DNA from: Candidatus Scatosoma sp.
GTDB taxonomy: Bacteria; Bacillota; Clostridia; Christensenellales; Borkfalkiaceae
Reading direction: 5' to 3'
DNA: 37,754 bases
Assembly (NCBI GenBank): GCA_045127475.1
Contig: JBGVQH010000192.1
Span: 1 to 37,754 of the forward strand
Shown: positions 3,404 through 32,753 of the stretch, one piece after another
Position numbering within the stretch: position 1 is the stretch's first letter
Layout of the letters: each line of letters starts with the position of its first letter
Program-made: the position numbers and the translations under genes
Notes under the pieces: generated by a model
Seen by the model: only the letters and a program-made list of their open reading frames with translations
Told to the model about the DNA's origin: nothing
Databases searched by the model: none

Positions 3404-3632
3404 GGATAAGGACTCCTTACTTATAAAATAATCGGTTTTGCGCTTTTCGCGAACGGAGCGTTTGAACGGACGTACCGCCCATAAAAAACCGTCTTTTTGC
3501 ATTTGCGCGCATAGACCGACACTATTAACGCATATTCTATTATATATCAATTTGTCAATTAAAGCAATCGAAAACGCCTTGTTTTTCGTGAATTTTGCTT
3601 GAAAATTTTTATATTTTTGGAGGTTTTTTTCC

Positions 3633-3836
3633 ATGGTACCCTTTGGCTTGTTCAATTTATTAAAATCCTTACTGCCACAGGCGGAAAATCCCGAGCAAAC
3701 ACCCGAGGAAAACCCCGAAAAAAAGCCCGCGTCCGCCACGGAAAACGGCGCGCACGAATTTTCGGACACGCCTCAAAACGCCTTTTTGGATTTTGTTTCC
3801 CGCCATGAAGAACGGAAACGAAATATAAAGAAATGA
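3633..3836 (+). CDS. Candidate small protein (67 aa), unknown function
   Basis: ATG at 3633 is preceded by GGAGG (3619-3623) with a 9-nt spacer. Divergent from the lipoprotein gene. Hydrophobic N-terminus FGLFNLLKSLL, P/E-rich middle, basic C-terminus. No family recognised. Confidence 0.4.
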   Translation: MVPFGLFNLLKSLLPQAENPEQTPEENPEKKPASATENGAHEFSDTPQNAFLDFVSRHEERKRNIKK

Positions 3837-14560: not shown

Positions 14561-15021
14561 TTATCCACCACACAAAAGTTATCCACATTCCCGCTTTTAT
14601 CCTCTTTTCTTTCCTTTGCAAGAAAACGGGTTTCTTGTCGGTTGCTGTCGAAAAATACGATTATAAATTCATACCGTATATAAAAAATTAAGGTTATCCA
14701 CTGAAAAAGTGGATAAAATAGGGTTGTCCACACCACAAAATTACTTTTTGTGGATAAACACCCCCTTTATCATCATAGAAAATTTTATAAAACCGATTAA
14801 AAATCGCTAAATCCCTTTATTTCCCCAACTTTTCTTTGTGGATAACTTTGTCCACACGTGCATTTTTCTTTTATTTTTTGGTGATTTTTTCGTGGATAAG
14901 TGTGTAAGAAAACGAAAATTGTGGATAAGATTCACACATCATCCCGCAAAAAACCACAGAAAACGGGCTTTTTATCCACAAACATTCGTTCTTTTTGTAT
15001 TCTTTCCTAAAGTTATCCACT
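14561..15021. promoter_or_regulatory. Dense DnaA-box cluster A (12 boxes) in a convergent intergenic region
   Basis: Perfect TTATCCACA/TGTGGATAA at 14579, 14749, 14837, 14930 and 14972. One-mismatch boxes at 14561, 14694, 14708, 14724, 14848, 14891 and 15013. Includes the 23-bp palindrome TTATCCACTGAAAAAGTGGATAA (14694-14716). The last box is followed by TAA-CCCGCC and an AT-rich tract. Confidence 0.9.
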
Positions 15022-17558: not shown

Positions 17559-18533
17559 TTATTCTTTATCTTCGCCGTTGCCGCTATTTCCAAGGAAAAT
17601 CCCAAAGAAATCGTTGGACGGTTTCAGGCTCGTTCCGCCCGAATTTCCACCGCCCGAGGGTTTTCTATCGCGGTTAAAAGGTTTTTTACCAAAGCCGCCT
17701 TTGCCGCCTCTGCCGCGGTCATTTCTGTCGCCAAAGCCACGGTCGCGGCCTCTGCCACCACGGTGATTATAACCGCCCCTTTCGCGGCGATCTCTTTCCG
17801 TTCTTGCGGGAATTGCAGGTGCATCGGGGTCTTCTACGTTGTTAGGTACAATAACGATATAGCGGTTGGGTTCTTTCCCCTCGCTCTCCGTTTTCACTTC
17901 TTCATTTTCAGACAAAGCCGCATGGATAATTCTTCTTTCGTACGGGTTCATCGGTTCAAGTTGAATTTTCTTGCCCAACCGAACGGCTTTTGCAGCAAGG
18001 TTATCCGCCAGCTTGTTCAAGGTCGCCTCGCGGTTCTCGCGGTAATTCTCGCAATCCACCACAACGCGCTTGTAATCATCCCTGCCCGTATTCGCAACCG
18101 CGCCCGCTAAGGTTTGAATCGCGTCCAACATTATGCCGTGTTTGCCGATAATCGACGTCGTGTTTGCCGCCGTTACGTTGATTTCTACCTTTTCACCCTC
18201 GGAAACCAGCTCCGTACAAGCGGTGATATTAAGCAATTTAAACAGTCCTTCCAAGAAGATAACCGTTCTTTCGCCGTCCGTAGCGTTTTCGCCTGCCGTT
18301 TCAATTACAGGCGTAGCGTTTTCCGCTTTTTCAGCCTTTTCCGATGCCTCCACAACGGCTTCTGCAGTTTCCTTTGCTGCAATTTCTACGCGTGCCTTTA
18401 CAGCGCCGAACAGCTTTTTCTTTCCTTCTTCCAAAACGCGAATATCCGCATTCTCTCTCGTGAGCCCGAGCTCGCTCAATCCCTTTTCAACGGCTTCATC
18501 CACCGTCTTGCCCGTAAATTCGGTATAAATCAT
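17559..18533 (-). CDS. khpB: RNA-binding protein KhpB/Jag (Jag_N + KH + R3H) with a C-terminal RGG-rich extension
   Basis: Start at the ATG at 18533 (GAGGAGAGATAAA upstream). Jag_N-like N-terminus (GKTVDEAVEKGLSELG), KH motif IIGKHG, R3H motif NPYERRIIHAAL. Located downstream of yidC, as in Firmicutes. Confidence 0.9.
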   Translation of the reverse strand: MIYTEFTGKTVDEAVEKGLSELGLTRENADIRVLEEGKKKLFGAVKARVEIAAKETAEAVVEASEKAEKAENATPVIETAGENATDGERTVIFLEGLFKLLNITACTELVSEGEKVEINVTAANTTSIIGKHGIMLDAIQTLAGAVANTGRDDYKRVVVDCENYRENREATLNKLADNLAAKAVRLGKKIQLEPMNPYERRIIHAALSENEEVKTESEGKEPNRYIVIVPNNVEDPDAPAIPARTERDRRERGGYNHRGGRGRDRGFGDRNDRGRGGKGGFGKKPFNRDRKPSGGGNSGGTSLKPSNDFFGIFLGNSGNGEDKE

Positions 18534-18583
18534 TTTATCTCTCCTCGTTCCGCGTTTGTGAAACACGGAACTACATATCTCTC

Positions 18584-20131
18584 TTATTTCTTTTTATTCT
18601 TTTTGTCGCTAGGCGTCTTGTCCTTATTTCTGTTGACCGCCGCCGCTCTGCCCGAAAGCACCTTATCGCCCTTAGCCGTCGCACCTGCCGCCTTTTTGTT
18701 CGCCGCCAAATCCACCAGCTTATTGATTACAATCATGGACAGCAGCGAGAACAGGTTGCTGACAACCATGTAAATCGAGAATGCCGAGCTGTACATAAAC
18801 GAGAACACCGCGAACATACCCGTCATGATGATCATCATCATTTTCTGCTGGCTGCCGCTCTGCCCGTCTACAGACGAATATTTATTTTGCTCTTTCTGCG
18901 AACGCATGGATATCCATTGTTGCAGCAAAATCGTACCGATCGAGAGCAAAATCATGATATAATACCCGTTTGCCTCGCTCTTTTGTGCGCCGAGCTTGCC
19001 CGTTACGTTATGATAGCCCTCGTCGGAATACGCCGTAATCATCAAAATCGACTTGTCCCCTTCCTTACACGAACAAGACTTTCTTTCGATAATTTCTTGG
19101 CTGAAATTGCCATAGCTCAACACGGGGTGCTTATAGGTTGCGTCCACCGCCCACACGTTTTTAATCCAAAGGAATTTGGTGTCCTTTTTCACGGTGCTGT
19201 GGTACACTTCTACGACCCTGTCCTGCGCGGGGCTGACAAATTCTTGCTTAATCAACGTTTGCTGTGTTTTCAGCGTTAATTCATCCGCCGTCAACGTCGT
19301 GCCTGCCGCAGCCGCGTCGTCTTGAATACTCTTTTCAATCGCCGCAATAATCTCGCCGTTTTCGGAAGAATATTTATCCCAATTTAAGAAATAATTTTTT
19401 CGATTGCTGTTTTCAACGTATTTTAAAATATCCGCTTTGTTTGTTTCAAAAACGTCCTGATTGAAAACGTAGCTCTTTTCGCCCGTATCTCCGTCAACCG
19501 TAGGCGCAACCTCTTGCGTTACCGTATAATAAATATACTTGTCGTTTTCCGCAACGGTATACGTAACGGTCATACCCGTTACCGTGGAAACGCCCGTTTC
19601 TTGGTTGGTGGTCGTATTTTCCTGTACCGTCCACGTCAAATTTTCTTCATCAAATTCCGCACAGTTTTCCAACATGTTTTCGTTGTATGCGCGTACCATG
19701 GTATTATAATTTTCCACGTTGGAATAGGACGAGAACGCGTTGAACGCGTTGATGGCGACGATAAAGATCACCAAGGACAAAATCATCGGCAAGCAGGACG
19801 ACATCATGGAAATCCCGTTCTCACGATACATTTCCATAACCTTTTGGTTATACTTATCCTTGTCGTTTGCGTACTGCTTTTGCAGCTTTTCCATGCGCGC
19901 CTGATTTTCTTTCATTTTCTGGTTCTGCTTGCGCATGTTGATACGCTGGAACACATCAAACGGCATCGTAATCAATTTCAAAAGCAGGGAAAATAAAACG
20001 ATACCCACGCCGACCGATCCGCAAACCGTCGTCAGCCATAAAATAATTTTCCCGATCCAGTTGAGCGAAACGCTGTGCAGCTGCGAATAAATCGGCATAC
20101 CCACGCCCGCTAATACGTTCATAATTCCCAT
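18584..20131 (-). CDS. yidC: Membrane protein insertase YidC/SpoIIIJ, long form (515 aa)
   Basis: YidC core features: TM1, the basic coiled-coil hairpin RKQNQKMKENQARMEKLQKQY, MYRENGISMMSSCLPMILSLVIF, FLWIKNVWAVD, C-terminal TMs and a lysine-rich tail. Operon position between yidD and jag. Confidence 0.88.
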   Translation of the reverse strand: MGIMNVLAGVGMPIYSQLHSVSLNWIGKIILWLTTVCGSVGVGIVLFSLLLKLITMPFDVFQRINMRKQNQKMKENQARMEKLQKQYANDKDKYNQKVMEMYRENGISMMSSCLPMILSLVIFIVAINAFNAFSSYSNVENYNTMVRAYNENMLENCAEFDEENLTWTVQENTTTNQETGVSTVTGMTVTYTVAENDKYIYYTVTQEVAPTVDGDTGEKSYVFNQDVFETNKADILKYVENSNRKNYFLNWDKYSSENGEIIAAIEKSIQDDAAAAGTTLTADELTLKTQQTLIKQEFVSPAQDRVVEVYHSTVKKDTKFLWIKNVWAVDATYKHPVLSYGNFSQEIIERKSCSCKEGDKSILMITAYSDEGYHNVTGKLGAQKSEANGYYIMILLSIGTILLQQWISMRSQKEQNKYSSVDGQSGSQQKMMMIIMTGMFAVFSFMYSSAFSIYMVVSNLFSLLSMIVINKLVDLAANKKAAGATAKGDKVLSGRAAAVNRNKDKTPSDKKNKKK

Positions 20132-20208
20132 AATTTACCTTTTTAACTCAAACGAAAACCGTCCGTAATGCTTTCGTTTTCGATTTTTCGTTCTTTATTT
20201 CTTTGCAT

Positions 20209-20424
20209 TTACAACAACCAGCGTTTTGCAAAATATCGTTCGGGCTCAGGGTCATATCCTCCTTTGGAAAAGGGATTGCACCGCAATATTCTCCACGCCC
20301 CCAGCAAAATCCCAATTAGCGCACCGTGGTTGTTGATACAGCGCATCGTATATTCCGAACAGGTGGGATTATACCGACAGGTTTTGCGCGAAAGGTATTT
20401 TTGATAAAAACGAATCATTCGCAT
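20209..20424 (-). CDS. yidD: Membrane protein insertion efficiency factor YidD
   Basis: MIRFYQKYLS...CRYNPTCSEYT...HGALIGILLGAWRILRCNPFSKGGYDP is the YidD signature. Start ambiguous: the ORF is open up to 20535, which would overlap rnpA. Confidence 0.85.
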   Translation of the reverse strand: MRMIRFYQKYLSRKTCRYNPTCSEYTMRCINNHGALIGILLGAWRILRCNPFSKGGYDPEPERYFAKRWLL

Positions 20425-20507
20425 ACAAATAACCTTCCCCGGTTTTGAAAAAATATGCCGATAAAGCCAGCCTAAATTTTCAAAAAACAGAGAAATCGCA
20501 TTGACTT

Positions 20508-20825
20508 TTACAAATTCTCTTTTTTGATTATACATTGTAAATGCCGTTCAAAGGTTTTTAGTGCATACTCTTGCTCCACTTTCGGAATTAACAGAATATG
20601 ATACTTCCCGTCTATCTCCTCTTGTACGGAGCGGAACGCCTCGCGTAATAATCTCTTAATACGGTTGCGCATCACGGCTTTTCCGTGCCGTTTTCCCACG
20701 GAAATCCCCATCGTCATTTTTTCCGCCTTATGATATACGACGGTCAGCGACGGAGAAAATCCCCGTTTTCCCTTTTGAAACAACCTTTGAAAGTCCGCTT
20801 GTTTTTTTAATCGCAAATACTTCAT
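20508..20825 (-). CDS. rnpA: Ribonuclease P protein component
   Basis: 105 aa. LKKQADFQRLFQKG...GISVGKRHGKAVMRNRIKRLLREAFR (RNR motif). Downstream of rpmH. Confidence 0.92.
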   Translation of the reverse strand: MKYLRLKKQADFQRLFQKGKRGFSPSLTVVYHKAEKMTMGISVGKRHGKAVMRNRIKRLLREAFRSVQEEIDGKYHILLIPKVEQEYALKTFERHLQCIIKKENL

Positions 20826-20975
20826 TTTTCTAAATCAAAAGCTTTTTTAAGGGTGTTTTTTGTAAAAAAACAAAAAATTTTACCAAAACCCGCTTTCGCT
20901 ATTAAAATGGCAAATCCTTTCCCTTGCAAAAGGGAAAGGAAATGAATTGTTTTTTACCGTTTACTTTCAGAAAAA

Positions 20976-21110
20976 TTAGTGGGTCAGTCTTTTTCTACCC
21001 TTATCTCTTCTTCTCTTCAACACCTTTCTGCCAGCGGTCGTTGCCATTCTCTTACGGAAACCGTGTACTTTGCTCTTCTGTCTTTTCTTGGGTTGATAGG
21101 TTCTTTTCAT
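20976..21110 (-). CDS. rpmH: 50S ribosomal protein L34 (44 aa; below the ORF-track size cutoff)
   Basis: Hand translation of the minus strand gives [44 protein letters not shown], then a stop. AGGAGAAAACATT sits upstream of the ATG at 21110. Confidence 0.95.
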
Positions 21111-21179
21111 AATGTTTTCTCCTGATTTGGTTTTTTCTTTTTTTGGTGGTTATCGCGTTTCTCCCCACAATAACTCCCA

Positions 21180-21209
21180 TATTATACCGCAAAGGCAAGA
21201 GTTAGGTCA
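21180..21209 (-). promoter_or_regulatory. rpmH promoter (TTGACC-18-TATAAT) in the 158-bp dnaN-rpmH spacer
   Basis: On the minus strand, -35 TTGACC at 21209-21204 and -10 TATAAT at 21185-21180. Confidence 0.65.
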
Positions 21210-21268
21210 AGCAATTTTACTCTCTTTTTTCGCTTTTCTTCGGGAATTTATAGGGATTTTGCCTTTTA

Positions 21269-22378
21269 TCAGTTTCCATTGCCGGTGCGTACGGGCAAAA
21301 TTAAATACTGATTTTTGTTGTCGTTTTCGTTTTCAAGCGTGAACGGTGAAACGGCAGTATTAAACGAAAGTATTACGTTTTCTTCGTTGAGCGCCTTGAG
21401 CGCGTCCAAAATATATTTGCCGTTCATGGCAATTTTTAATTCTTTTCCGTTCAGCTCGGCAGCTACCGTTTCTTCTACCTTACCCATTTCCGAGTTTGCG
21501 TTGATGACGATTTTACCAAGTTTAATATCCAGCACGATTAAATTGTTTTTATCCCCTCTGATTAAAACGGACGCTCTTTCGATACTGTCTATCATTTCCG
21601 CACGTTTCACCAAAACTTTCGTCGTGAAATCGATAGGATAAATGTTTTCTTTTCTGACGAATTCGCCCATATATAAACGGGAAGTAATCACAGTATCCGA
21701 AACGCCTACCGACAATACATTTTTGTCCGCATAAATTTTCAACGCGTCGTCGCCGTCCAGCATACGGGAAATTTCAATCAACGTTCTTGCAGGACAAACG
21801 ATTTTTAAATCGCCGTTCTCTGCCGACGCGTCGCAGTACGACGTTGCCATTCTAAACCCGTCAAGAGCCGTCGCCGTCAGCTTTCCTTCTTTCGTTTCCA
21901 AAAGACAGCCCTTTAAAATCGGTCGGCTTTCGTCCGTTGCGCAACAGAATACGACCTTGGAAATCAATTCTTTCAAATCGTTTTCCTTTGTTTTAAAATA
22001 TGCCTTGTCCTCCCAGTTTCTTTCCCCCATTTTCGGAAATTCGTCCGCGGGTAAGGATTGCATGTACGTTTCACTGTCGCCGTATTTAATGATAATCCCC
22101 TTTTCATCGGAGGTAATCACAACCTCGAACGCAGAAATTTTATTGACGAAATCGGAAAACGTCTTACCGTTTACACACAATTCGCCCTCTTCCATAATCT
22201 CGGCAATCACCTTTTTTTCAATCGAAATCTCCCCGTCGTACGCAACGAGGGTAATTCCATCGTTTGCCGCCTTTATTTTTATACATTCCAAAATCGGGGT
22301 AATCGTTTTTACTGCACACGCCTTGCTTACCGTCAAAGCCGCATCCGAAAGCAAAGTTCCGTTACATACAAATTTCAT
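21269..22378 (-). CDS. dnaN: DNA polymerase III beta sliding clamp
   Basis: 369 aa. The N-terminus MKFVCNGTLLSDAALTVSKACAVKTITPILECIKI and the overall three-domain length are typical of DnaN. Confidence 0.93.
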   Translation of the reverse strand: MKFVCNGTLLSDAALTVSKACAVKTITPILECIKIKAANDGITLVAYDGEISIEKKVIAEIMEEGELCVNGKTFSDFVNKISAFEVVITSDEKGIIIKYGDSETYMQSLPADEFPKMGERNWEDKAYFKTKENDLKELISKVVFCCATDESRPILKGCLLETKEGKLTATALDGFRMATSYCDASAENGDLKIVCPARTLIEISRMLDGDDALKIYADKNVLSVGVSDTVITSRLYMGEFVRKENIYPIDFTTKVLVKRAEMIDSIERASVLIRGDKNNLIVLDIKLGKIVINANSEMGKVEETVAAELNGKELKIAMNGKYILDALKALNEENVILSFNTAVSPFTLENENDNKNQYLILPVRTGNGN

Positions 22379-22432
22379 CTTCTTAATCTCCTAAATCCGC
22401 ACTTTTAAAAGGCTACTTTTTTTATCTTCTCT

Positions 22433-22486
22433 ATTGTACCATATCCCCGTTTTTTTTGCAAGTCAAATCACGGTTTTTTATCCACA
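22433..22486 (-). promoter_or_regulatory. dnaN promoter (TTGCAA-17-TGgTACAAT) with a perfect DnaA box just upstream
   Basis: On the minus strand, TGTGGATAA (22486-22478), then -35 TTGCAA (22461-22456) and an extended -10 TGGTACAAT ending at 22433. Confidence 0.6.
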
Positions 22487-22493
22487 TTTTTCC

Positions 22494-23006
22494 TTATAGG
22501 AAAATTATTTTTGAAAGGGGGTGTAATTTTTGAAAAATTTTCACCGTATACGCAGCGCCGCCCTCTTTCTTTTTACAATAGGCAATCATCACTTGCGCGC
22601 GCTCTGCCATATACCTGTCCCGCACCTGCATACAACCCCTGTAATAGGCAGGTGCAAGGGTTATTTTTTCGTCCGCTTTCTTTAAAATAGAAAGATAAGT
22701 TTTTTTATCCTTTTCGCAAAAATATTTTTCCTGTCCATAGCAGGGAATACAAGCTATTAATTTAATCTGCGGATATTTTTTCTTAAATTTCAACACGGCA
22801 TTTGCCGCCGTAAGGTCAAACCCCTTTGCCATACCGTTGTAAAAATCGGTTATACCATCTTTTATCAGATTTTCTATTTCTTTGTTTAATTTCCGCGCGG
22901 AAAAATCTTCGCCTAGCTCCCGATGCCCGGTGAAAACACACGCCTTATTCTGTTGTTCTTCACCCTGAGAATTTGGTAAAATTGAGAGCTGTTCTTCCAT
23001 TTTCAT
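22494..23006 (-). CDS. SLOG-fold DUF1273 (YpsA-like) protein
   Basis: 170 aa. The pattern CVFTGHR...GMAKGFDLTAANAVLKFKKKYPQIKLIACIPCYGQE...RDRYMAERAQVMIAYC...GGAAYTV matches the clostridial DUF1273/SLOG family layout. Noticeably more AT-rich by eye than most flanking genes. Confidence 0.75.
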   Translation of the reverse strand: MKMEEQLSILPNSQGEEQQNKACVFTGHRELGEDFSARKLNKEIENLIKDGITDFYNGMAKGFDLTAANAVLKFKKKYPQIKLIACIPCYGQEKYFCEKDKKTYLSILKKADEKITLAPAYYRGCMQVRDRYMAERAQVMIAYCKKKEGGAAYTVKIFQKLHPLSKIIFL

Positions 23007-23028
23007 TTTCCTTTTTTTATTTGTTATT

Positions 23029-23056
23029 ATTATATAATAAAATGAAAATTTGTCAA
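23029..23056 (-). promoter_or_regulatory. Near-consensus sigma-A promoter of the SLOG gene (TTGACA-16-TATAAT)
   Basis: On the minus strand, -35 TTGACA at 23056-23051 and -10 TATAAT at 23034-23029. Confidence 0.65.
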
Positions 23057-23109
23057 GACGGGAATGCCATAATTTTTGTGTTTTTTAGAAAAAATTTTTT
23101 ACCCTTTTC

Positions 23110-23437
23110 CAACCGTCAGTTCCAATGATTATTATTTATTAAAAAGTATAAATAGTAGTATTAGTAGTAGGGCGGGTGGAATTGTGGACAAAGGGTATGA
23201 AATAATAAAAAAAGTCTGCTTTTATAAAGGAAATTTCATTTTTAATAAGGGTGGACAACCTTATATTTTTAGGTGGATAAAAAAGTGGAGAATTTGTGTA
23301 AAGGTGGAAGAAAAGGAAAAGGTTAAAAAAATAAAAATTTATAAATATACAAAAAAATATTATAAATATTAAAAATTAAAATTATCCACGAAGTTTGTCC
23401 ACACGGTGGATAACCTTATAAACAAAAGGGTGGACAA
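23110..23437. other. Core replication origin candidate (oriC cluster B): AT-rich tract, DnaA-trios, GC cluster, DnaA boxes
   Basis: Plus strand: AT-rich 23125-23152; TAG TAG TAT TAG TAG TAG at 23153-23170; GGCGGG at 23171-23176. DnaA boxes with one mismatch at 23183, 23272, 23382, 23395 and 23405; with two mismatches at 23250 and 23429. A second AT-rich block of about 60 bp lies at 23320-23381. Confidence 0.8.
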
Positions 23438-23510
23438 AGGTGGAAAGAACGGAAAAAAATTTATAAAAAAGATTGCTATTTTATAAGAAAAGTGTTATAA
23501 TAAAAGGGCT

Positions 23511-24206
23511 ATGGAAATTAGAACGGTAGAAGAACTTTATCAAAACGAAATTTTGGGAGAAAAGCGGGAGCTGTTGGAAAACTTCCGTCTTTTATTGCTT
23601 GAATACAATCAAAAATACAATTTAACCGCCATTTTAGAGGAAAAAGACGTTTATTATAAGCATTTTTTAGACAGTGCGGCAGGCGTTGATTTGTTCGATA
23701 AAGGGGCGAACGTTGCGGAAATCGGCTCGGGAGCGGGCTTTCCGTCTATAGTGTTAAAAATTCTTCGTCCTGATTTAAAATTTTCCCTTTTTGAAAGCGT
23801 TGGGAAAAAATGTGAATTTTTGCGTGCCATTGTGGATAACTTCGGGTTTACAGGAATGCATATTTATAACATGCGGGCAGAGGACGCCGCAAAGGATGAA
23901 AAATTTAGAGAGCGCTTTGATTTTGTTACGGCAAGGGCGGTGGCGCGTATGAATACGTTGAGCGAATATTGTCTGCCCTTTGTAAAAATCGGCGGTAAAT
24001 TCGTCGCCTATAAAAGCGGGGACGTCGCCGAAATTCACGAGGCGAAAAATGCGTATAAGGAATTAGGTGGTAAGCTGTCGCAGATAAAAGAATACGCTCT
24101 TCCCGAGGGATATGGCGAGCGGGTGTTGGCAGTTGTAGAGAAAATCAGGTCCACGCCGAAAAAATATCCGCGCGGACAAGGAAAAGAACGGAAAAATCCG
24201 CTGTGA
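23511..24206 (+). CDS. rsmG: 16S rRNA (guanine527-N7)-methyltransferase
   Basis: 231 aa. YNQKYNLTAI...HFLDS...VAEIGSGAGFPSIVLKI...FVTARAVA is the RsmG/GidB pattern. Confidence 0.9.
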   Translation: MEIRTVEELYQNEILGEKRELLENFRLLLLEYNQKYNLTAILEEKDVYYKHFLDSAAGVDLFDKGANVAEIGSGAGFPSIVLKILRPDLKFSLFESVGKKCEFLRAIVDNFGFTGMHIYNMRAEDAAKDEKFRERFDFVTARAVARMNTLSEYCLPFVKIGGKFVAYKSGDVAEIHEAKNAYKELGGKLSQIKEYALPEGYGERVLAVVEKIRSTPKKYPRGQGKERKNPL

Positions 24207-24233
24207 TTTTATAAAACTGTATAAAAAAGTTAG

Positions 24234-24262
24234 AAAAAGCGACCTACACATGGTCGCTTTTT
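24234..24262. terminator. Bidirectional intrinsic terminator between rsmG and ricT
   Basis: AAAAA-GCGACC-TACACAT-GGTCGC-TTTTT. The perfect stem is extended by A/T pairs. Confidence 0.8.
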
Positions 24263-24342
24263 GCATTCTGAAAGGGAGTATTGCGCGCTATTTTATGGAG
24301 AAAAGTTTCCATAATCGCAATACGTATAGGGGGTTTTTAAAA

Positions 24343-25209
24343 TTATTCCTCGTCCTCGTCTTCGTCCTCGTCGGGTTTTTGAGGTTGGGGTGCGGGCTTT
24401 TTAAAGCGGATATATTCTAAGGGGTAATCTTTCCAAATCCAGCCCCCGTTTCGATCGTCCATCTTCACCTTAACTTCCATACGCAGCATATTGACGGCGG
24501 CAACGATGGCTTTACCCTCGGGTGTACCTACTTCTGCGCCGATTTTCGGCATTTTTTTACTTGCCTCTGCATAATAATCGTTTTCGTAGCTTAAGCAGCA
24601 CATCAATCTGCCGCAAAGCCCGCTGATTTTGCCAGGGTTTAAGGACAAACCTTGCGTTTTCGCCATCTTTACGCTTACCTTTTTAAATTCGGGCATATTC
24701 CCTGCGCAACAGCAGATTCTGCCGCAAGGAGCAAGTCCGCCAAGATACTTCGTTTCATCACGTGTGCCCACCTGGCGCAATTCGATACGGTTTTTAAAGG
24801 TGGACGCAAGGTCTTTTACCAGCTCGCGGAAGTCCACGCGGGTAGAGGAAGTGAAATAGAAGATAATTTTACTGCCGTCAAAGGCGTATTCGCAATCGAC
24901 CAGTTTCATTTCCAAGCCGTGTGCAAGGATTTTTTCCTTACAGGTCTGCATTGCTTGCGGGCGCTTGGCTTGACAGGTTTCGTAAAATTCGGTGTCCTTT
25001 TCCGTTGCAATACGGATTACCGGTTTTAAGGGTTGAACAACCTCTTCTTCCTCTACTTCTTTTTCGGGATATGCCACCCAAGCGTATTCTAACCCGCGCG
25101 AGGTTTCTACCACTACGGGCATATTCCGTGTGTATACGTCCCCTTTCTTCGGGGCAAAATAATACAGCTTTCCGCCGTTTTTAAATTTAATTCCTACTAC
25201 TTTTACCAT
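24343..25209 (-). CDS. ricT: RicT/YaaT (PSP1 domain, Fe-S cluster protein of the Ric complex)
   Basis: 288 aa. Contains VVGIKFKNGGKLYYF, the PSP1 core, and the Cys cluster GGLAPCGRICCC...GLCGRLMCCL. Downstream of holB, as in Bacillus. Confidence 0.9.
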   Translation of the reverse strand: MVKVVGIKFKNGGKLYYFAPKKGDVYTRNMPVVVETSRGLEYAWVAYPEKEVEEEEVVQPLKPVIRIATEKDTEFYETCQAKRPQAMQTCKEKILAHGLEMKLVDCEYAFDGSKIIFYFTSSTRVDFRELVKDLASTFKNRIELRQVGTRDETKYLGGLAPCGRICCCAGNMPEFKKVSVKMAKTQGLSLNPGKISGLCGRLMCCLSYENDYYAEASKKMPKIGAEVGTPEGKAIVAAVNMLRMEVKVKMDDRNGGWIWKDYPLEYIRFKKPAPQPQKPDEDEDEDEE

Positions 25210-25233
25210 ATAATTACCTTAAAAAGTTTGTTT

Positions 25234-26211
25234 TTAATCGTTGTTTTTTTTGCGAATTTTCGCAATCAGAAGTTCGATACACTGCGGGAACACCGCATTA
25301 AAGGTTACTTGTTTTTCCGCCTCGGATAACCCCTCCTGCGCGTATAACAGCGCGGGGATACTATAAGCGGCGGCAACCTCGGTAAGCTGCGTTTTTTCCG
25401 CACGCAAAAGTAAATATTTCTCAGCGTTTTTTCCCTGCGTTTTGACAAGCAGCGCATCACGGAAAATCAGTCGTAAAAGGGACAAAAGCTCTCGCTTATA
25501 TTTGGTTTCTCCTACCTCTTTTACTGCCTGCGGCAGCTTAAAGGTGGGGGTACGTGTCAAAACGAACGCGTTTTCGAGCAGATGTTTATACCGTCCGCCC
25601 TCTAACATATTTTGCGCTTGTCCCACGTTCCCGTCTGCGCACGCGGCGCAAATAGAAATCGTTTCTTCATCATACGCACTCCCGTATAAACGCAATAGAC
25701 ATTGTGTGATTTGCTCGGTGGAAAAGGAGGGAATATCCAGCCGTTTCGTACGGGATAACACCGTCTGTAATACGGGAAAAACGCTAGTCGTTCCCAGAAG
25801 AAAAATAACCCCTTTTGGCGGTTCTTCTAAGAGCTTTAATAGCTTGTTTTGCGTCTGCGCATTCGCCTCGGCAAAATCCCCGACGACAAACACTTTTTTA
25901 TCCCCCTCGACAGGGTTTAACAGGCTCTCTTCCTTGATTTTTTCCGCATCTTCTACCGAGAGTTTTTTATCTTCCGCGGGAAAGAAAAGACAATCGGAAA
26001 ACGCTTCTTTATCGATAAGTTCTGCCCGCCGTTTTTCTAAAAGGGTGGCACACGTGTCGCAATCAAGCAAGATTTTTGCAAATTCTTTGAGAGCAAAACG
26101 CAGATTTCTTCCGTCGGGAAAATGCAACAAATACGCATGGGAAAGACGGTTTTCTGCGCTTTCCGTTTTGAGTAGCGTATACGATTGCGTTTGCTGTAAA
26201 AGAGTTTGCAT
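25234..26211 (-). CDS. holB: DNA polymerase III delta-prime subunit
   Basis: Motifs LSHAYLL, QNKLLKLLEEPP and TVLSRTK are characteristic of clamp-loader delta-prime. 325 aa. Confidence 0.85.
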   Translation of the reverse strand: MQTLLQQTQSYTLLKTESAENRLSHAYLLHFPDGRNLRFALKEFAKILLDCDTCATLLEKRRAELIDKEAFSDCLFFPAEDKKLSVEDAEKIKEESLLNPVEGDKKVFVVGDFAEANAQTQNKLLKLLEEPPKGVIFLLGTTSVFPVLQTVLSRTKRLDIPSFSTEQITQCLLRLYGSAYDEETISICAACADGNVGQAQNMLEGGRYKHLLENAFVLTRTPTFKLPQAVKEVGETKYKRELLSLLRLIFRDALLVKTQGKNAEKYLLLRAEKTQLTEVAAAYSIPALLYAQEGLSEAEKQVTFNAVFPQCIELLIAKIRKKNND

Positions 26212-26346
26212 AGTCTGCCTTTGCTTGGTATCGGTTTTGCGAAAGAGAGCATCTTGCCAAAAGCGTGCAAACTTTTCCGCATACTATATTATAGCATAGA
26301 TTTTTGAAAAAGTAAAGGCTTGAGCCAAAAGTTGTTTTGAGAATAT

Positions 26347-26373
26347 GAAAAAAGCGCGGAAAATGCTCCGCGC
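26347..26373 (-). terminator. Intrinsic terminator of the 26406-26852 gene
   Basis: On the minus strand: GCGCGGA-GCATTT-TCCGCGC followed by TTTTTTC. Confidence 0.75.
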
Positions 26374-26405
26374 CAAAGGAAATTTCGCTGCTATTGCATG
26401 CAAAA

Positions 26406-26852
26406 TCAAAGGAATTCTTTCCATTTCTTCTCAAATTCTTCTTCCGCTTGAATCATTTCATGGAGCAGCTCGCATACGGCGTCGCTGTTCTCGCAGCTGA
26501 TATCCCCCGCAGAGGTGCGCAGGGCGGAGATGCCCATCACCGTCCCCTGCAACATCATGTCTGCGATATGGGAGGGGGAATTGTCGGTAAGCGTGCTCAT
26601 TTTTATCGAGCCCCACATCATCATTTTTTTCATGGGGTTGGGTTCTTTGAGCTCGGTATCAAGGTCGCGTGCAAGCTGTGCGGCTTTTGCTGAAAAGCGT
26701 TCGTATTCCTCGTGCTGGCGAAGAAGCTCGGTTTTTATTTCGTCGTTTTCGACTGCGGGAAGAATGTTAGAAATCGATTGCAAAGCAAGGTGTGCGTTGC
26801 GGTAGATTTCCGAGAGCACTTCCACCGATTTTTTACGTGCGTTATTTTCCAT
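26406..26852 (-). CDS. Hypothetical helical protein (148 aa)
   Basis: Start set at the ATG at 26852 (AAAGGAGAAAATAAATTT upstream). The ORF-track N-terminal extension lacks an RBS. Predicted all-helical and charged. No family recognised. Confidence 0.6.
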   Translation of the reverse strand: MENNARKKSVEVLSEIYRNAHLALQSISNILPAVENDEIKTELLRQHEEYERFSAKAAQLARDLDTELKEPNPMKKMMMWGSIKMSTLTDNSPSHIADMMLQGTVMGISALRTSAGDISCENSDAVCELLHEMIQAEEEFEKKWKEFL

Positions 26853-26971
26853 AAATTTATTTTCTCCTTTCGGCGGCTGTGCCGCACAAAAACAGTTTGC
26901 GCAAGGCAATAAAAAAATATGTTTTTAGCGGAAAATATTTAAAAAATATACAAAAAACACGCAAAAAACGC

Positions 26972-27114
26972 TTGACGGAAAAGGAACGTTTATGGTATAT
27001 TGATAGTCGAGCCGATAGAAACGGGCTTTTTAAGTCAGCGATTTTTTGTTCAATTTTGATAAAAATCACTGCGCCTTGGGTATCTTCGAGACTGGAAAGA
27101 GGAGGTAAAATCTT
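26972..27114 (+). promoter_or_regulatory. rplU promoter (TTGACG-18-TGgTATATT) and a ~110-nt leader (possible L21-type leader)
   Basis: -35 at 26972-26977 and extended -10 at 26993-27001. The leader contains a long imperfect hairpin, CAGCGATTTTT...AAAAATCACTG. Its identity as a regulatory leader is inferred from position only. Confidence 0.5.
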
Positions 27115-27420
27115 ATGTACGCTATCATTGATAACGGCAACAAGCAGTACAAAGTGGCGGAAGGCGACGTTGTAAGAGTAGAAAAACTCAACGCAGCGGA
27201 AGGCGAAACCGTTAGCTTTAAAGTATTGATGGTTGCTGACGAAAACGGTATCAAAGCCGGCGCGGAAGTTGAAAACGCGAAGGTTACCGCTACGGTCGTT
27301 AAGCAGGACAAGGCGAAGAAAATCATCGTCTTTAAGTACAAAGCAAAGAAGAACGAACGTAAGAAGCAGGGCCACAGACAGCCCTTCACGGCAGTAAAAG
27401 TTGAAAAAATCGAACTCTAA
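27115..27420 (+). CDS. rplU: 50S ribosomal protein L21
   Basis: [18 protein letters not shown]...[20 protein letters not shown] is canonical L21. GAGGAGG RBS. Confidence 0.96.
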
Positions 27421-27529
27421 TTTTTAAAGAACGGTAACAATTTCAGCTTTTTGGCACAAGACTTCGCCCCTTTATAAATATTGTATAAAGCGCGGCGGCA
27501 AAAAATTTGATTTTTAAGGAGAAATAAAA

Positions 27530-27805
27530 ATGATTTTTATCAGTTTATTCGCTCATAAAAAAGGTACCGGCTCTTCCCACAACGGTAGAGATAGCGAAGC
27601 GAAAAGACTTGGCGTGAAGCGCAGCGACGGCCAGGCTGTTCTCGCGGGCAATATCCTCGTTCGCCAGAGAGGCACGAAGATCCACCCCGGTACGAACGTT
27701 GGTATTGGTAAGGACGACACGCTTTTCGCGCTCGTTGACGGTATCGTTCGTTATGAAAGATTGGGCAAAGACAAAAAACAGGCAAGCGTTTATCCCAACG
27801 CTTAA
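27530..27805 (+). CDS. rpmA: 50S ribosomal protein L27 with a 7-residue N-terminal propeptide-like extension
   Basis: MIFISLF|[23 protein letters not shown]... is canonical L27 from AHKKG onward. AAGGAG RBS 8 nt upstream of the ATG at 27530. No alternative start lies next to AHKK. Confidence 0.93.
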
Positions 27806-27824
27806 AATTAGCGGATAGAAAATA

Positions 27825-27863
27825 AAACCCAACTTCCCTTGTGGAGGCTTGGGTTTTCTTTTT
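27825..27863 (+). terminator. Intrinsic terminator after rpmA
   Basis: AAACCCAA (27825-27832) / TTGGGTTT (27849-27856) with inner pairing, followed by a TCTTTTT run. Confidence 0.7.
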
Positions 27864-27950
27864 GTCAAAAACGGAATTTTCGATCGTACTTTCGATACGT
27901 ATTGGGGGTTTTTGGTTTACTTTTCATCAAAAACGGAGTATAATAATAGT

Positions 27951-28865
27951 ATGGAACAGCTTTTGGAACAACAAAAATCGCAGATAGAAACAAATGCGGG
28001 AAAGGCGAAAAAGCCGTGGTTGGGGGTTTTGTATATCGTCATTTCGGCATTTTGCTTTTCGTTGATGAGTGTATGCGTGCGAAAGGCGGGCGATTTGCCC
28101 ACTTTCCAAAAGGCGTTTTTTAGAAATTCCGTCGCCGCGGTGGCTGGTTTTTTTATGGTGGCGAAAAGCGGCTCGTTTAAAATGCAAAAAGGCAGTTTTG
28201 TTCCCCTGATTTTGCGTTCTATCGTCGGCACAATCGGAATTGTAGGAAATTTTTACGCCATTGACCGCATGAATATTTCGGACGCGTCCATTTTAAACAA
28301 GCTTGCTCCCTTTTTCTCGGTTCTTTTTTCGATATGGATTTTGAAAGAAAAGGCAAGCGTGTGGGATTTGGTGTTTGTCGGGGTTGCGTTTGGCGGCGCG
28401 CTGTTTGTGGTTAAGCCGTCCTTTGACGTAACCGAATTTTTGCCTGCACTGATTGGAGTGCTGGGCGGTTTGGGCGCGGGTATGGCGTATACGTTCGTGC
28501 GAAAATTGTCCAACCAAGGGGAACGTGGTCCGTATATCGTCTTTTTCTTTTCGGTGTTTTCATGCTTGGCAATTTTACCGATTGTCATTGTACAATGGCA
28601 GCCGATGACGGGTTGGCAGGTGGCGTGGTTGTTGCTTGCGGGCTGTGCGGCAAGCGGCGCACAATTTTCGGTAACGGCGGCGTACGCGCATGCGCCTGCC
28701 AAGGAAATTTCGGTGTACGATTATTCGCAGGTGCTTTTTACCGCTGTTTGGGGTATAGCGTTCTTTGGGGAATTCCCTGATGCTTTAAGTGTAATCGGCT
28801 ACGTAATTATTATCGGCGCGGCGTTATCAAAATATTTTGCTGGGCGGAAAAAAACAAAAAAGTAA
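27951..28865 (+). CDS. EamA/DMT-family transporter
   Basis: Start moved to the ATG at 27951. About 10 TM segments with the duplicated EamA-domain pattern. 304 aa. Confidence 0.8.
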   Translation: MEQLLEQQKSQIETNAGKAKKPWLGVLYIVISAFCFSLMSVCVRKAGDLPTFQKAFFRNSVAAVAGFFMVAKSGSFKMQKGSFVPLILRSIVGTIGIVGNFYAIDRMNISDASILNKLAPFFSVLFSIWILKEKASVWDLVFVGVAFGGALFVVKPSFDVTEFLPALIGVLGGLGAGMAYTFVRKLSNQGERGPYIVFFFSVFSCLAILPIVIVQWQPMTGWQVAWLLLAGCAASGAQFSVTAAYAHAPAKEISVYDYSQVLFTAVWGIAFFGEFPDALSVIGYVIIIGAALSKYFAGRKKTKK

Positions 28866-28899
28866 AAGCCCCCTATACGTGTCGTAACGAAACAAAAAA

Positions 28900-28923
28900 G
28901 CGACCTGAAAAGGCCGCTTTTTT
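28900..28923. terminator. Intrinsic terminator after the EamA gene
   Basis: AAAAAA-GCGACC-TGAAAA-GGCCGC-TTTTTT (one mismatch in the stem). Confidence 0.65.
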
Positions 28924-29022
28924 AATGCCATTCTTACGATAAGTTTGTCGCAGTCGCTTACACTCCTTTGCAATGACAATGAGAAAAAAAGTGTGTCATT
29001 GCGAGCCGTTAGGCGTGGCAAT

Positions 29023-29310
29023 CTAATTGTTAATATCTTCCGCTAAATCAAGCCAGTTAGGGTTTAGTTTGTTTATTAATGCAATCTTTTTTGCCCTTGA
29101 ACCAGCTTTAATTTGTTTTTCACGTTCTATCGCGCTAATGACTTCTGTCGTAGATTCATAATAAACAAGCTGATTAATATTGTACCGTGAACAAAAAGAG
29201 CGGCGATCCACTTTTTGTTTGTGTTCTGCCACTCGCTTTTGTAAATTGTTTGTTACCCCTGTATATAATACGGAATGGGTTTGATTGGTTAAAATATAAA
29301 CGTAATACAT
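29023..29310 (-). CDS. GIY-YIG nuclease family protein (UPF0213/COG2827 type, 95 aa)
   Basis: N-terminus MYYVYILTNQTHSVLYTGVTNNLQKRVAEHK contains the GIY...YTG(YIG) motif pair. Single-domain size. Confidence 0.88.
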   Translation of the reverse strand: MYYVYILTNQTHSVLYTGVTNNLQKRVAEHKQKVDRRSFCSRYNINQLVYYESTTEVISAIEREKQIKAGSRAKKIALINKLNPNWLDLAEDINN

Positions 29311-29327
29311 TGCTCTATTTTTTATAA

Positions 29328-29428
29328 GATTGCCACGCTACGCTCGCAATGACGATGGCAGAGATTACCGCGCTACGCTCGCAATGACGGTGGCAGAGAT
29401 TGCCACGCTACGCTTGGCTACGCCAAAT
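29328..29428. repeat. Tandem ~35-bp repeats (about 2.8 units) right of the GIY-YIG gene
   Basis: Unit 1, 29328-29362: AGATTGCCACGCTACGCTCGCAATGACGATGGCAG. Unit 2, 29363-29397: AGATTACCGCGCTACGCTCGCAATGACGGTGGCAG. A partial unit 3 starts at 29398. Each unit can fold via ATTGC...GCAAT. Confidence 0.8.
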
Positions 29429-29462
29429 AGCAAGCTGAGCGCAATGACAATAAGGGGCAGAA

Positions 29463-30704
29463 TTATACCGCCTGCTTGTAAACCAAAAGAGGCGTTGCGC
29501 CGTCCGTCAAACATTCTTTCGTGATGACCACCTCTTCCACGTTCTCCTCGGACGGGATTTTGTACATCACTTCGGTCATGACGTTTTCAATAATCGTACG
29601 CAAGCCGCGCGCGCCCGTCTTTAAACGGATTGCCGTTTGCGCAATTTCACGCACCGCGTCGTCTTCCACCGTCAATTTCACGCCGTCGTAACCCACCAGC
29701 TTTTGATACTGCTTGATAATGGCGTTCTTCGGTTCGGTCAAAATCTTCACGAGCGCCGTTTCGTCTAACGGATCGAGGTTTACGACGATAGGAATACGCC
29801 CGACAAATTCGGGGATTAAGCCAAATTTCGTCAAATCCTGCGGTTTCACGTCGTCCAAAACAGAATAGTCCGCTTCGTTTGCTCCCAAGCGCACTTTGCC
29901 GCCAAACCCCAGCGTCGTGTCGTCCTTTCTGGACGAAACAATCTTATCCAAGCCCACGAATGCACCGCCGCAAATGAACAAAATATTCGTCGTGTCGATA
30001 CGTAAACATTCCTGGTTGGGGTGCTTTCTGCCGCCCTGCGGGGGAACGTTTGCCGTCGTGCTCTCGATAATTTTGAGCAAAGCTTGCTGTACGCCCTCGC
30101 CTGAAACGTCGCGGGTAATGGACACGTTTTCGCTCTTTCTAGCAATCTTGTCGATTTCGTCGATATAGATGATGCCGCGCTGTGCCCGTTCAATATCAAA
30201 ATCGGCGTTTTGAATAAGCTTCAACAGGATATTTTCCACGTCTTCGCCGACGTACCCTGCCTCGGTCAGCGTGGTGGCATCCGACGTGGCAAAGGGAACG
30301 TTTAAAACTTTGGCGAGCGTCCGCGCGAGTAACGTTTTACCGCTACCCGTAGGACCGAGCAACAACACGTTGCTCTTTTCGATTTCCACGCCGTCGTCGT
30401 CCTTTTTCTTTGCTTTGACTGCCGCGTTGATACGCTTGTAATGGTTATACACGGCAACGGACAAAACCCGTTTCGCCTTGTCCTGACCGACGATATATTT
30501 ATCGAGCTCCGCCTTGATTTCGGCGGGCTTTTTTAAGGGGACTTCCTCGGTGGGTTTGTCGTCCGTTTCCCACTCGTCCACCATAGATTTGCAGATGTCA
30601 ATGCACTCGTCGCAGATGCACGCGCCGTCGGGGCCCGTAATCAAACGCCGAGTTTCTTCTTTCGGTTTCCCGCAAAAAGAACAATGCTGATTTTTATTAG
30701 CCAT
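29463..30704 (-). CDS. clpX: ATP-dependent Clp protease ATP-binding subunit ClpX
   Basis: N-terminal zinc finger CSFCGK...CDEC, Walker A GPTGSGKT, and IYIDEIDK. Confidence 0.97.
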
Positions 30705-30722
30705 ATAGATTGCTCCTAAAAA

Positions 30723-31313
30723 TTATCTTCTGACGAATACGCGGTCGATTAGTCCGTAACGCAACGCCTCGTCTGCCGACATGTAGTTATCACGGTCGGT
30801 ATCCCGTTCAATCGTCGCGATATCTCTGCCCGTGTTTTCGGACAGGATACGGTTGAGCTTCGCTTTCGTGCGCAAAATATGCTCCGCTTGAATTTTAATA
30901 TCGCTTGCCTGACCCTGTGCGCCGCCAAGAGGCTGGTGAATCATAATTTCAGAATTCGGCAGAGCGTAACGTTTGCCTTTTGCGCCGCTGGAGAGTAAGA
31001 ATGCGCCCATAGATGCCGCCAAACCGATACAAATTGTCGATACGTCGCACTTGATATAGTTCATGGTGTCGTAAATTGCCATACCCGCCGACACCGAACC
31101 GCCGGGGGAATTGATATACAAGCTGATGTCTTTGGTGGAATCTTTGCCTTCCAAATAGATGAGCTGTGCAACGACGGTGTTTGCCAGCGCGTCGTTGATT
31201 TCACCGCTTAAGAAGATGATGCGGTCGTCCAGCAAACGGGAGTACAAATCGTACGTGCGTTCGCCCGAGGACGTGCGTTCTACTACGTAGGGAACTAAAA
31301 CGTTTTTTTCCAT
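30723..31313 (-). CDS. clpP: ATP-dependent Clp protease proteolytic subunit ClpP
   Basis: [23 protein letters not shown], and catalytic-Ser context GLAASMGAF. Confidence 0.97.
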
Positions 31314-31454
31314 AATCGTTTCCTTTTTTCCTTTTCTATGCGTTCGTTGCGATACGTATAGGGGGACTTTTTGTTTTTAGTTGGTTTTTAATGTGTTTGG
31401 GCGACCTGAAAATAGGCCGCCCCGATTCTTTATCGTTATTTAAATCGCCGTGAA

Positions 31455-32753
31455 TTATTCTTCCACGTACATTTCGTTGTTTGCCTTAAGCATATCGAAA
31501 AGCTTGGTGATGATGATGTCGTTGCGGATATAATCGAACTGACGGGGGTCCATGTTCTTCTTGTATTCTTCCGCCGTCTTGTTAACGGATGCAGCCTGCT
31601 CGGCAACTTTCGCGTCAACCTCTTCTTCCGTCGCCTCGATATTTTCGTCCTTAATAAGCTGGGAAATAATCAACTGGCTCTTAACGTTCTTTTCAGCCTG
31701 CTGAGCGTAGTTCTTTCTGAAATCTGCGTTCGTAATCTTCAAGAAATCAAGATAGTCCTGCAATTTCAAGCCCTGATACATCAGCTGATATTCAAATTTT
31801 TGAACCAAGCCGTCGATTTCTCTTTCAATCATAGCCTGGGGAATTTCTACCTCCGCGTTTGCAGCGATTGCTTCCAAAATGCTGTTTTCCGTCTGGTCGT
31901 TTGCTCTGCGGTCTGCCTGAGCCTGCAAACGTTCTTTCGTCTTAGCCTTATAATCTGCTACCGTTTCGCTGCCCGTAGCTTCTTTGATGAACTCGTCCGT
32001 AAGTTCGGGAAGTTCTTTGCCTTGAATTTTGTTCAAGGTAACGGCAAACACTGCGGGCTTGCCTTTGAGTGCTTCCGCTTGATAGTTTTCAGGGAACGTA
32101 ACGTTAACGTCTTTCTTGTCGCCGATATTCATGCCAACAACTTGGTCTTCAAAACCGGGAATGAACTGACCGCTGCCAAGGGTAAGGTCAAAGCCTTCCG
32201 CTTCGCCGCCGTCGAATTTCACGCCGTCCACCGTACCAACGAAGTCGATATTAACGATATCGCCGTTTTGTGCCGCTCTGTCGGTAATTTCCACTTTGCG
32301 AGCGTTTCTATCCTGCACGCGTGCAACTTCAGCGTCTACTTCTTCGTCCTTAACAGTATATTCAAATTTCTGGATTTTCATACCCTTGTAGTTGGAAATT
32401 TTTACCTCGGGTTTTACGGGAGCAACCGCAACGAGGGTAACGCCTTCGTCGTCGAGCTTTTCTACCGTAACTTCGGGGTCGCCGACAACGGTGTATTTAT
32501 CTGCTGCTTTTGCAACGACGGTGGGATAATTTTCCGCGAACATGGTGTTGAGTGCTTCGTCGTAGAATACGCCTTTGCCGTAAACGTTTTCAATTACGTT
32601 CTTGGGAGCTTTGCCCTTACGGAAACCGTTGATGGCAAATCTGCCTCTCGTTTTGAGGTAAGCGTTTTGCTGTGCTGCTTTCCATTCTTCTGCGTCAAAC
32701 TTGATGGTAAATTTTACCGTGCTTTTTTCTGCCGCTTTGCTAGTGTACTTCAT
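31455..32753 (-). CDS. tig: Trigger factor
   Basis: 432 aa. GFRKGKAP ribosome-binding signature and an FKBP-type middle domain (GFIPGFEDQVVGM). tig-clpP-clpX gene order. Confidence 0.95.
   Translation of the reverse strand: MKYTSKAAEKSTVKFTIKFDAEEWKAAQQNAYLKTRGRFAINGFRKGKAPKNVIENVYGKGVFYDEALNTMFAENYPTVVAKAADKYTVVGDPEVTVEKLDDEGVTLVAVAPVKPEVKISNYKGMKIQKFEYTVKDEEVDAEVARVQDRNARKVEITDRAAQNGDIVNIDFVGTVDGVKFDGGEAEGFDLTLGSGQFIPGFEDQVVGMNIGDKKDVNVTFPENYQAEALKGKPAVFAVTLNKIQGKELPELTDEFIKEATGSETVADYKAKTKERLQAQADRRANDQTENSILEAIAANAEVEIPQAMIEREIDGLVQKFEYQLMYQGLKLQDYLDFLKITNADFRKNYAQQAEKNVKSQLIISQLIKDENIEATEEEVDAKVAEQAASVNKTAEEYKKNMDPRQFDYIRNDIIITKLFDMLKANNEMYVEE

Follow-up and report, generated by a model that had tools for sequence, protein, structure and literature searches.

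Within the 37,754-nucleotide window, by which we mean the whole stretch of DNA analysed here, the region at 23.06-23.47 kb is very probably the replication origin (oriC) of a Candidatus Scatosoma-like Clostridia bacterium, with positions 23116-23191 as its basal unwinding system (BUS), and we put the probability of this reading at roughly 0.87. The call rests on the architecture of the site, its uniqueness in the window, its conservation among relatives, a switch in strand skew, and the symmetry of an inversion around it. The core itself belongs to the known Bacillus subtilis type; it very probably forms the origin of a so far uncharacterised lineage, stands apart from dnaA, and is accompanied by a conserved satellite cluster of DnaA boxes. 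The features used in the argument are as follows.

14561-15021, no strand: satellite cluster of 12 DnaA boxes (five perfect, the others with 1 mismatch), at a distance of 8.2 kb from the unwinding core.
23029-23056, minus strand: promoter-like site for the ypsA-like gene and perhaps dnaN (TTGACA, 16 nt, TATAAT; 12/12 consensus), directed outward from the origin.
23116-23152, no strand: AT-rich tract, predicted DNA unwinding element, 84% AT, directly distal to the trios.
23153-23170, plus strand: six DnaA-trios TAG TAG TAT TAG TAG TAG (3'-GAT-5' repeats), predicted single-strand track for the DnaA oligomer.
23171-23174, no strand: GC cluster of 4 bp between boxes and trios, GGCG on plus and CGCC on minus.
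23175-23182, minus strand: degenerate second DnaA box ATTCCACC (plus strand: GGTGGAAT), offset by 8 nt from the strong box and in tandem with it.
23183-23191, minus strand: strong DnaA box TTGTCCACA (plus strand: TGTGGACAA), 1 mismatch, pointing towards the trios.
23250-23313, minus strand: array of five DnaA boxes or half-boxes in one orientation, all towards the trios.
23320-23381, no strand: central AT block between the two box groups, 62 bp, 95% AT, least stable 60-mer of the window.
23382-23437, no strand: distal group of four DnaA boxes, two facing two: 23382 (+), 23395 (+), 23405 (-), and 23429 (-).
23473-23501, plus strand: promoter-like site for rsmG (TTGCTA, 17 nt, TG-TATAAT of the TGnTATAAT form), with transcription away from the origin.

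The candidate origin is intergenic and occupies most of a 504-bp gap that separates a ypsA-like SLOG gene (22494-23006, minus) from rsmG/gidB (23511-24206, plus), so that rsmG on one side diverges from the ypsA-like gene and dnaN on the other. On the minus strand the order runs from the boxes through the trios and the AT tract to the ypsA-like gene and then to dnaN (21269-22378), which is followed directly by rpmH-rnpA-yidD-yidC-jag, all in the same orientation. The origin-proximal markers dnaN, rpmH, rnpA, yidC, jag, and rsmG flank the site; of the neighbouring indicator genes used in Ori-Finder/DoriC-type criteria (dnaA, dnaN, rpmH, and the gid genes), dnaA is absent. The initial annotation, which was made from the letters alone, had drawn weak support from the orientation of ribosomal protein genes, and this orientation is as described, with rpsI, rplM, and rpmH on the minus strand to the left and rplU and rpmA on the plus strand to the right. 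The promoter-like site of rsmG is kept in the closer relatives. An Rfam search of the origin region at E values up to 1 returned no match, which leaves an RNA explanation unsupported, and a search of the origin for Spo0A boxes (TGTCGAA) found none.

Read along the minus strand from 23191 to 23152, the core consists of TTGTCCACA-ATTCCACC-CGCC-(CTA CTA CTA ATA CTA CTA)-T, after which the AT-rich tract begins. The core sequence quoted earlier, comprising the AT tract, the trios, GGCGGG, and TGGAAT, was confirmed base for base, as was the statement that five of the six trios match the 3'-GAT-5' consensus; all six have a central A, and four further NAN units continue in register after them. The letters GGCGGG and TGGAAT are thus correct, but their parsing had to be revised, because the alignment with B. 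subtilis resolves them into a 4-bp GC cluster followed by the degenerate second DnaA box, which is not a neutral spacer. The complement of the trios on the minus strand, CTACTACTAATACTACTA, contains five 5'-TnnT-3' motifs of the DnaD recognition element (DRE) type, 5'-TnnT-3' being the core of the element described for B. subtilis (PMC10201434).

In B. subtilis the BUS comprises DnaA boxes #6/#7, a GC cluster, and the DnaA-trios, as represented by the scaffold ACTTATCCACAAATCCACAGGCCCTACTATTACTTCTACTAT (PMC8287927 supplement); the AT-rich element of that origin is a 27-mer. The minus strand of the window, TTGTCCACAATTCCACCCGCCCTACTACTAATACTACTAT, aligns with the B. subtilis BUS scaffold TTATCCACAAATCCACAGGCCCTACTATTACTTCTACTAT without gaps and with 33 of 40 positions identical. 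The trio-strand polarity had been claimed to be that of B. subtilis oriC, and the comparison with the scaffold oligonucleotides bears this out in order, strand, and spacer (PMC8287927). Order, strand polarity, and spacing are thus common to the window and the incC BUS of B. subtilis (Richardson 2016/2019, Pelliciari 2021): in both, a strong box is followed by a weak one offset by 8 nt and then by a 4-bp GC cluster, six trios, and an AT tract, with 12 nt between the strong box and the trios. The strong box at 23183-23191 corresponds to box #6 and the second box to box #7 (aligned to AATCCACA), GGCC stands in B. subtilis at the position of CGCC in the window, the 5'-TnnT-3' repeats on the trio-complementary strand resemble the DnaD recognition element, and the unwinding element is aimed at dnaN in both. 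There are also differences. The B. subtilis element lies between dnaA and dnaN, whereas in the window the divergent rsmG takes the place of dnaA and the ypsA-like gene separates the AT tract from dnaN; the window has the weaker second box (4 mismatches versus 2); and most relatives, unlike B. subtilis, have a 13-nt spacer and an array that begins one trio later. The B. subtilis system has been defined experimentally, and its counterpart in the window is predicted from the sequence. Because the core is kept (33/40) in a distant class despite the lost link to dnaA, the comparison supports the box-trio module, rather than the gene neighbourhood, as the conserved unit.

The published BUS program looks for a DnaA box that adjoins the trios and departs from TTATCCACA at no more than 2 positions, optionally with a tandem box of at most 4 mismatches, a spacer of 0-16 nt from the first box to the first trio (13 being the commonest), and at least 3 consecutive trios with a central A and the consensus 3'-GAT-5' (PMC8287927). 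Every sequence feature that it specifies is present at 23116-23191. The box TTGTCCACA at 23191-23183 has 1 mismatch to TTATCCACA, the consensus used for all our mismatch counts; the second box, scored as AATTCCACC, has 4 at an 8-nt offset; the box-to-trio spacer is 12 nt; and the distal tract at 23116-23152 is AT-rich and easily melted. Orientation agrees too, as shown by the collinear ungapped alignment with oligonucleotide oTR600; in B. subtilis, reversal of the box inactivates incC (PMC6669920). We re-implemented the BUS search under the published rules (box with at most 2 mismatches, spacer of 0-16 nt, at least 3 NAN units; PMC8287927), and in a scan of the window this site scored 23 and the next independent candidate 10, which supports the earlier view of it as the strongest candidate unwinding site. 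The 18-nt trio string, with up to 3 mismatches allowed, occurs once in the window where 0.01 occurrences are expected. Boxes are similarly concentrated, since the 504-bp intergenic region holds 5 with at most 1 mismatch, compared with 0.21 on average and never more than 3 in 2000 shuffles, and nine with at most 2 mismatches, compared with 2.5 in shuffles.

These boxes (mismatches in parentheses) begin at 23183 (1), 23250 (2), 23272 (1), 23382 (1), 23395 (1), 23405 (1), and 23429 (2), with two additional 2-mismatch boxes at 23284 and 23416 and weaker GGTGGA/CCAC cores at 23179, 23307, and 23443. The six positions from 23250 to 23429 had all been listed before and all proved to be genuine matches with 1 or 2 mismatches; the count of seven given with them did not stand, as only six positions were listed. 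All origin-region boxes are imperfect, with at least 1 mismatch, in contrast to the five perfect boxes of the cluster at 14.5-15.0 kb. In the five-box array the CCAC cores lie at 23307, 23299, 23288, 23276, and 23254, spaced by 8, 11, 12, and 22 nt, and the distal group has the family consensus GTTATCCACAnTGTGGATAACTTTTGTGGATAAC. Two perfect DnaA boxes occur outside the core, one at 22478-22486, just upstream of the dnaN promoter-like sites and kept only in the four closest relatives, and one at 23831-23839 inside rsmG.

Duplex stability also singles out this intergenic region, as the four 30-mers of lowest stability in the 37.7 kb all fall within 23.0-23.4 kb, and the 30-mer from 23128, in the trio-adjacent AT tract, ranks third. 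The second AT block of more than 60 bp, previously reported at 23320-23381, is as described, and it is less stable than the trio-adjacent tract. The central block might therefore melt instead of, or besides, 23116-23152; possible roles for it are as a spacer that bends or loops the DNA and as a secondary unwinding element.

Strand composition points to the same place. Cumulative GC skew falls steadily from position 1 to about 22.97 kb and then rises, with a local minimum, taken within the 37.7-kb window, at 22965, about 200 bp from the site. To separate the replication effect from gene orientation, skew was computed at third codon positions. Pooled plus-strand GC3 skew was -0.29 for plus-strand genes and -0.08 for minus-strand genes on the left of the site, and +0.14 and +0.11, respectively, on the right. 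Since the sign changes for genes of both strands, gene orientation does not account for the switch, and the direction of the change is the one that marks an origin rather than a terminus. The concern that the skew origin might map far from 23 kb is answered, within the window, by the position of the minimum and by the GC3 sign change at 23 kb.

The arrangement of the locus in relatives provides another pointer. The window is collinear with the relative L002 except for one 11.4-kb inversion, 17569-28923 (3143-14863 in L002), whose midpoint, 23246, lies within the origin; the two arms measure about 5.7 and 5.8 kb. Origin-symmetric inversions are a typical bacterial pattern (PMC5850607, PMC9584773), and the inversion is therefore an independent pointer to the 23-kb site. 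A search for inverted repeats at the breakpoints gave nothing convincing. At the right breakpoint lies a small ORF (29023-29310, minus) whose N-terminal motif resembles that of a GIY-YIG family protein, and several copies of a CGCAATGAC-type repeat flank it (region 28960-29450). This ORF had no tblastn match in the fetched relative loci, and its region may be a mobile insertion. Among the relatives, ypsA, rsmG, and their neighbours have been shuffled by small inversions, and the unit of AT tract, trios, boxes, and rsmG has stayed intact.

A DnaN protein scan of species-representative genomes yielded 21 loci from Candidatus Scatosoma-like metagenome-assembled genomes, with DnaN identities of 69-94%, and four distant loci; NCBI taxonomy places Candidatus Scatosoma in Clostridia incertae sedis. 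Fifteen of the relatives, whose loci all include the rsmG 5' flank, carry the module exactly once and always at the 5' side of rsmG, in the form of a strong box, a weak box, a short GC-rich spacer, CTA CTA (CTA) ATA CTA CTA, and an AT tract. The question whether the arrangement is kept in close relatives can thus be answered positively for all 15 module-bearing loci. In an alignment of 16 origins, the window included, column conservation was highest for the strong box (0.90) and the trios (0.90), followed by the second box (0.87), the five-box array (0.79, with invariant box cores), the distal group (0.75), the GC cluster (0.70), and the partly conserved central AT block (0.68), with spacers at about 0.5. 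The non-consensus ATA trio is invariant across the aligned origins, and the AT tract in relatives carries a conserved AATAATAA motif. The TTCCAC core of the second box is present in 13 of the 15 relatives, with ATACAC in L003 and TTCCCC in L010. The box-to-trio spacer measures 13 nt in ten relatives and 12 nt in four, and in L011 it is 5 nt from a weaker box. The upstream boxes are also footprinted in relatives, as one box facing two, together with the phased five-box array towards the trios. In 10 of the 15 relatives the module is no more than 200 bp from the skew minimum, and in 14 the distance does not exceed 1 kb; the outlier, L014, has its minimum 4 kb from the module. Orientation of the module relative to dnaN is reversed in L007-type relatives. 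In L021 (1-10000; DnaN 77% identical) no origin, rsmG, or ypsA was found upstream of the dnaN-to-jag block, where transporter-like and other unrelated ORFs are present instead. Linkage of dnaN to the origin is therefore not universal in this group.

How DnaA would bind, where the duplex would open, and how helicase would be loaded can be proposed by analogy with B. subtilis. ATP-DnaA would bind about ten double-stranded DnaA boxes, and the tandem strong and weak boxes at 23191-23175 would orient the DnaA oligomer, which may then extend over the 4-bp GC cluster onto the six plus-strand trios, from 23170 down to 23153. By capturing and stretching the plus strand, the oligomer would open the duplex into the AT tract, from 23152 to 23116, and the freed minus strand would expose the DnaD-type 5'-TnnT-3' repeats, on which helicases could be loaded for bidirectional replication. 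The upstream phased array and the distal group probably raise the local occupancy of DnaA, as do the upstream incC boxes of B. subtilis.

Description of the site as a textbook origin is appropriate for the core, but the genomic context departs from it, with dnaA absent and a richer box cluster at 14.5-15.0 kb. The usual Firmicutes context is rpmH, oriC1, dnaA, oriC2, and dnaN. No dnaA was found in the window, that is, within 14-23 kb of the site, and a tblastn search with the DnaA proteins of the two Clostridia loci L024 and L025 detected none within 10 kb of dnaN in the 21 relatives; across the window and all 25 loci, matches occurred only in three distant loci, which are the sources of the queries or similar. 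The bipartite layout with two box clusters and dnaA between them is therefore not seen in the window or in the 21 loci, none of which contains dnaA, while the unwinding element does lie in the dnaN-proximal cluster and is aimed at dnaN, as in bipartite origins. In the distant Clostridia L023-L025, dnaA is immediately upstream of dnaN. L023 and L025 (10001-20300) show dnaA-dnaN, a convergent parB-rsmG, and then jag-yidC-yidD-rnpA-rpmH, which puts the rpmH block downstream of dnaN, at a distance of about 9-10 kb, rather than upstream of dnaA, an arrangement that is also non-canonical. The dnaA gene of E. coli lies about 42 kb from oriC, which is located between gidA/mnmG and mioC. The likeness of the window to this origin is one of context only, in that the origin is unlinked from dnaA and lies beside a gid-family gene (rsmG = gidB), and the internal layout of E. 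coli oriC differs, with 13-mers, R and I sites, IHF, and GATC sites. Clostridioides difficile is closer in detail, as the oriC2 trio tract CTACTACTATTACTACTA (PMC7561715) shares 17 of 18 bases with CTACTACTAATACTACTA and, as in the window, has DnaA boxes upstream and a predicted unwinding element immediately downstream of the trios. However, C. difficile has a bipartite origin in the rpmH-dnaA-dnaN context, whereas the two clusters of the window are 8 kb apart and do not have dnaA between them.

That second cluster is the satellite, which sits where the genes gerKC and cvpA converge, between their 3' ends, with ten unrelated genes between it and the unwinding core. It is conserved in 12 relatives, always 7-10 kb from the core and on either replichore, with the boxes as invariant columns. 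Since both neighbouring genes end towards it, it does not occupy the position of a promoter. Trios, a marked AT tract, and a skew switch were looked for at the satellite, and none of the three was present. We conclude that it is probably not part of the unwinding core and likely part of the DnaA control system. Like the DnaA-box clusters (DBCs) of B. subtilis and datA of E. coli, it combines dense high-affinity boxes with a position near the origin but outside the unwinding region, and the oriC-proximal DBCs of B. subtilis are negative regulators that restrain initiation (PMC3245932). On the other hand, a constant distance of 7-10 kb from the origin, as seen across 12 genomes, has not been described for the B. 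subtilis DBCs. We speculate, as an idea that is rather unlikely but worth stating, that the core was split from dnaA in this lineage and now works with the satellite, either as a loop partner that replaces the oriC1 half or as a datA-type, distance-tuned brake. If this were true, it would amount to a three-part origin over about 9 kb with the initiator gene elsewhere.

A stronger role of the satellite would be that the 23-kb region needs it as a distant 'oriC1' half, joined through a DnaA loop of about 8 kb, or that the satellite itself initiates. Its boxes are indeed more numerous and better than those of the core, their conservation and constant distance could be read in this way, and C. difficile oriC2 alone was not unwound in vitro and needed oriC1 (PMC7561715). 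But the satellite has neither the trio array nor the marked AT tract, the skew does not switch there, and the inversion is centred on 23.25 kb and not on 14.8 kb. Moreover, the 23-kb region has about ten boxes of its own in two groups, a loop of about 8 kb is far above the 132-462 bp tested in B. subtilis, and the known analogues, the oriC-proximal DBCs, act as negative regulators (PMC3245932). We consider such a split origin improbable. The absence of dnaA nearby raises a different doubt, namely that the active oriC lies by dnaA elsewhere and that the site is a relic or secondary origin, kept only as a region of divergent promoters, regulated by DnaA, that serves rsmG on one side and the ypsA-like gene and dnaN on the other. 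The boxes are in fact flanked by two good promoter-like sites, and DnaA boxes regulate transcription in B. subtilis (PMC3245932). Yet a relic would not maintain the skew switch, which is seen in the window and in most relatives, would not centre a symmetric inversion, and would not keep its trios at 0.90 while the spacers drift. To our knowledge, trios have no transcriptional role. This reading is very improbable in our judgement, although it is possible that a second origin-like site exists beside dnaA elsewhere in the genome.

The trios could also be a chance (TAG)n microsatellite in AT-rich intergenic DNA near words that resemble DnaA boxes. With 75% AT, the region is of a kind in which short repeats are common, and Tandem Repeats Finder scores here are weak; however, the expected number of such strings is the 0.01 given above, the number of boxes at the 1-mismatch level exceeds that of all 2000 shuffles, and the array has been kept, its non-consensus ATA trio included, in genomes with spacers that have drifted to about 50%, whereas a microsatellite would vary in copy number. 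The conservation data effectively refute this explanation, and its probability is close to nil. The assignment of 23.06-23.47 kb as oriC thus remains the preferred reading. A well-supported origin for this uncultured gut Clostridia group (Candidatus Scatosoma and relatives) is useful for the orientation of draft genomes, for peak-to-trough growth-rate estimates based on metagenome coverage, and for the choice of fragments for replicons and vectors, and the dnaA-unlinked context with a conserved satellite offers a natural test case for the separation of origin parts.

Several further observations concern the wider locus. A parS-like site, TGTTTCACGTGAAAAA, with 1 mismatch, lies at 11899-11914 inside gerKA; its position is not kept in relatives, and it was therefore not used as origin evidence. 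The relative L011 has a perfect parS at 2374-2389. The clpX-clpP-tig genes (29463-32753) are on the strand that is head-on to the inferred rightward fork, likewise in the relatives examined, which is unusual for genes that are expected to be highly expressed. Near the left end of the window, an ORF at 938-3769 encodes 943 residues without a Pfam match, and another at 219-764 encodes 181 residues with a long tail rich in aspartate and glutamate.
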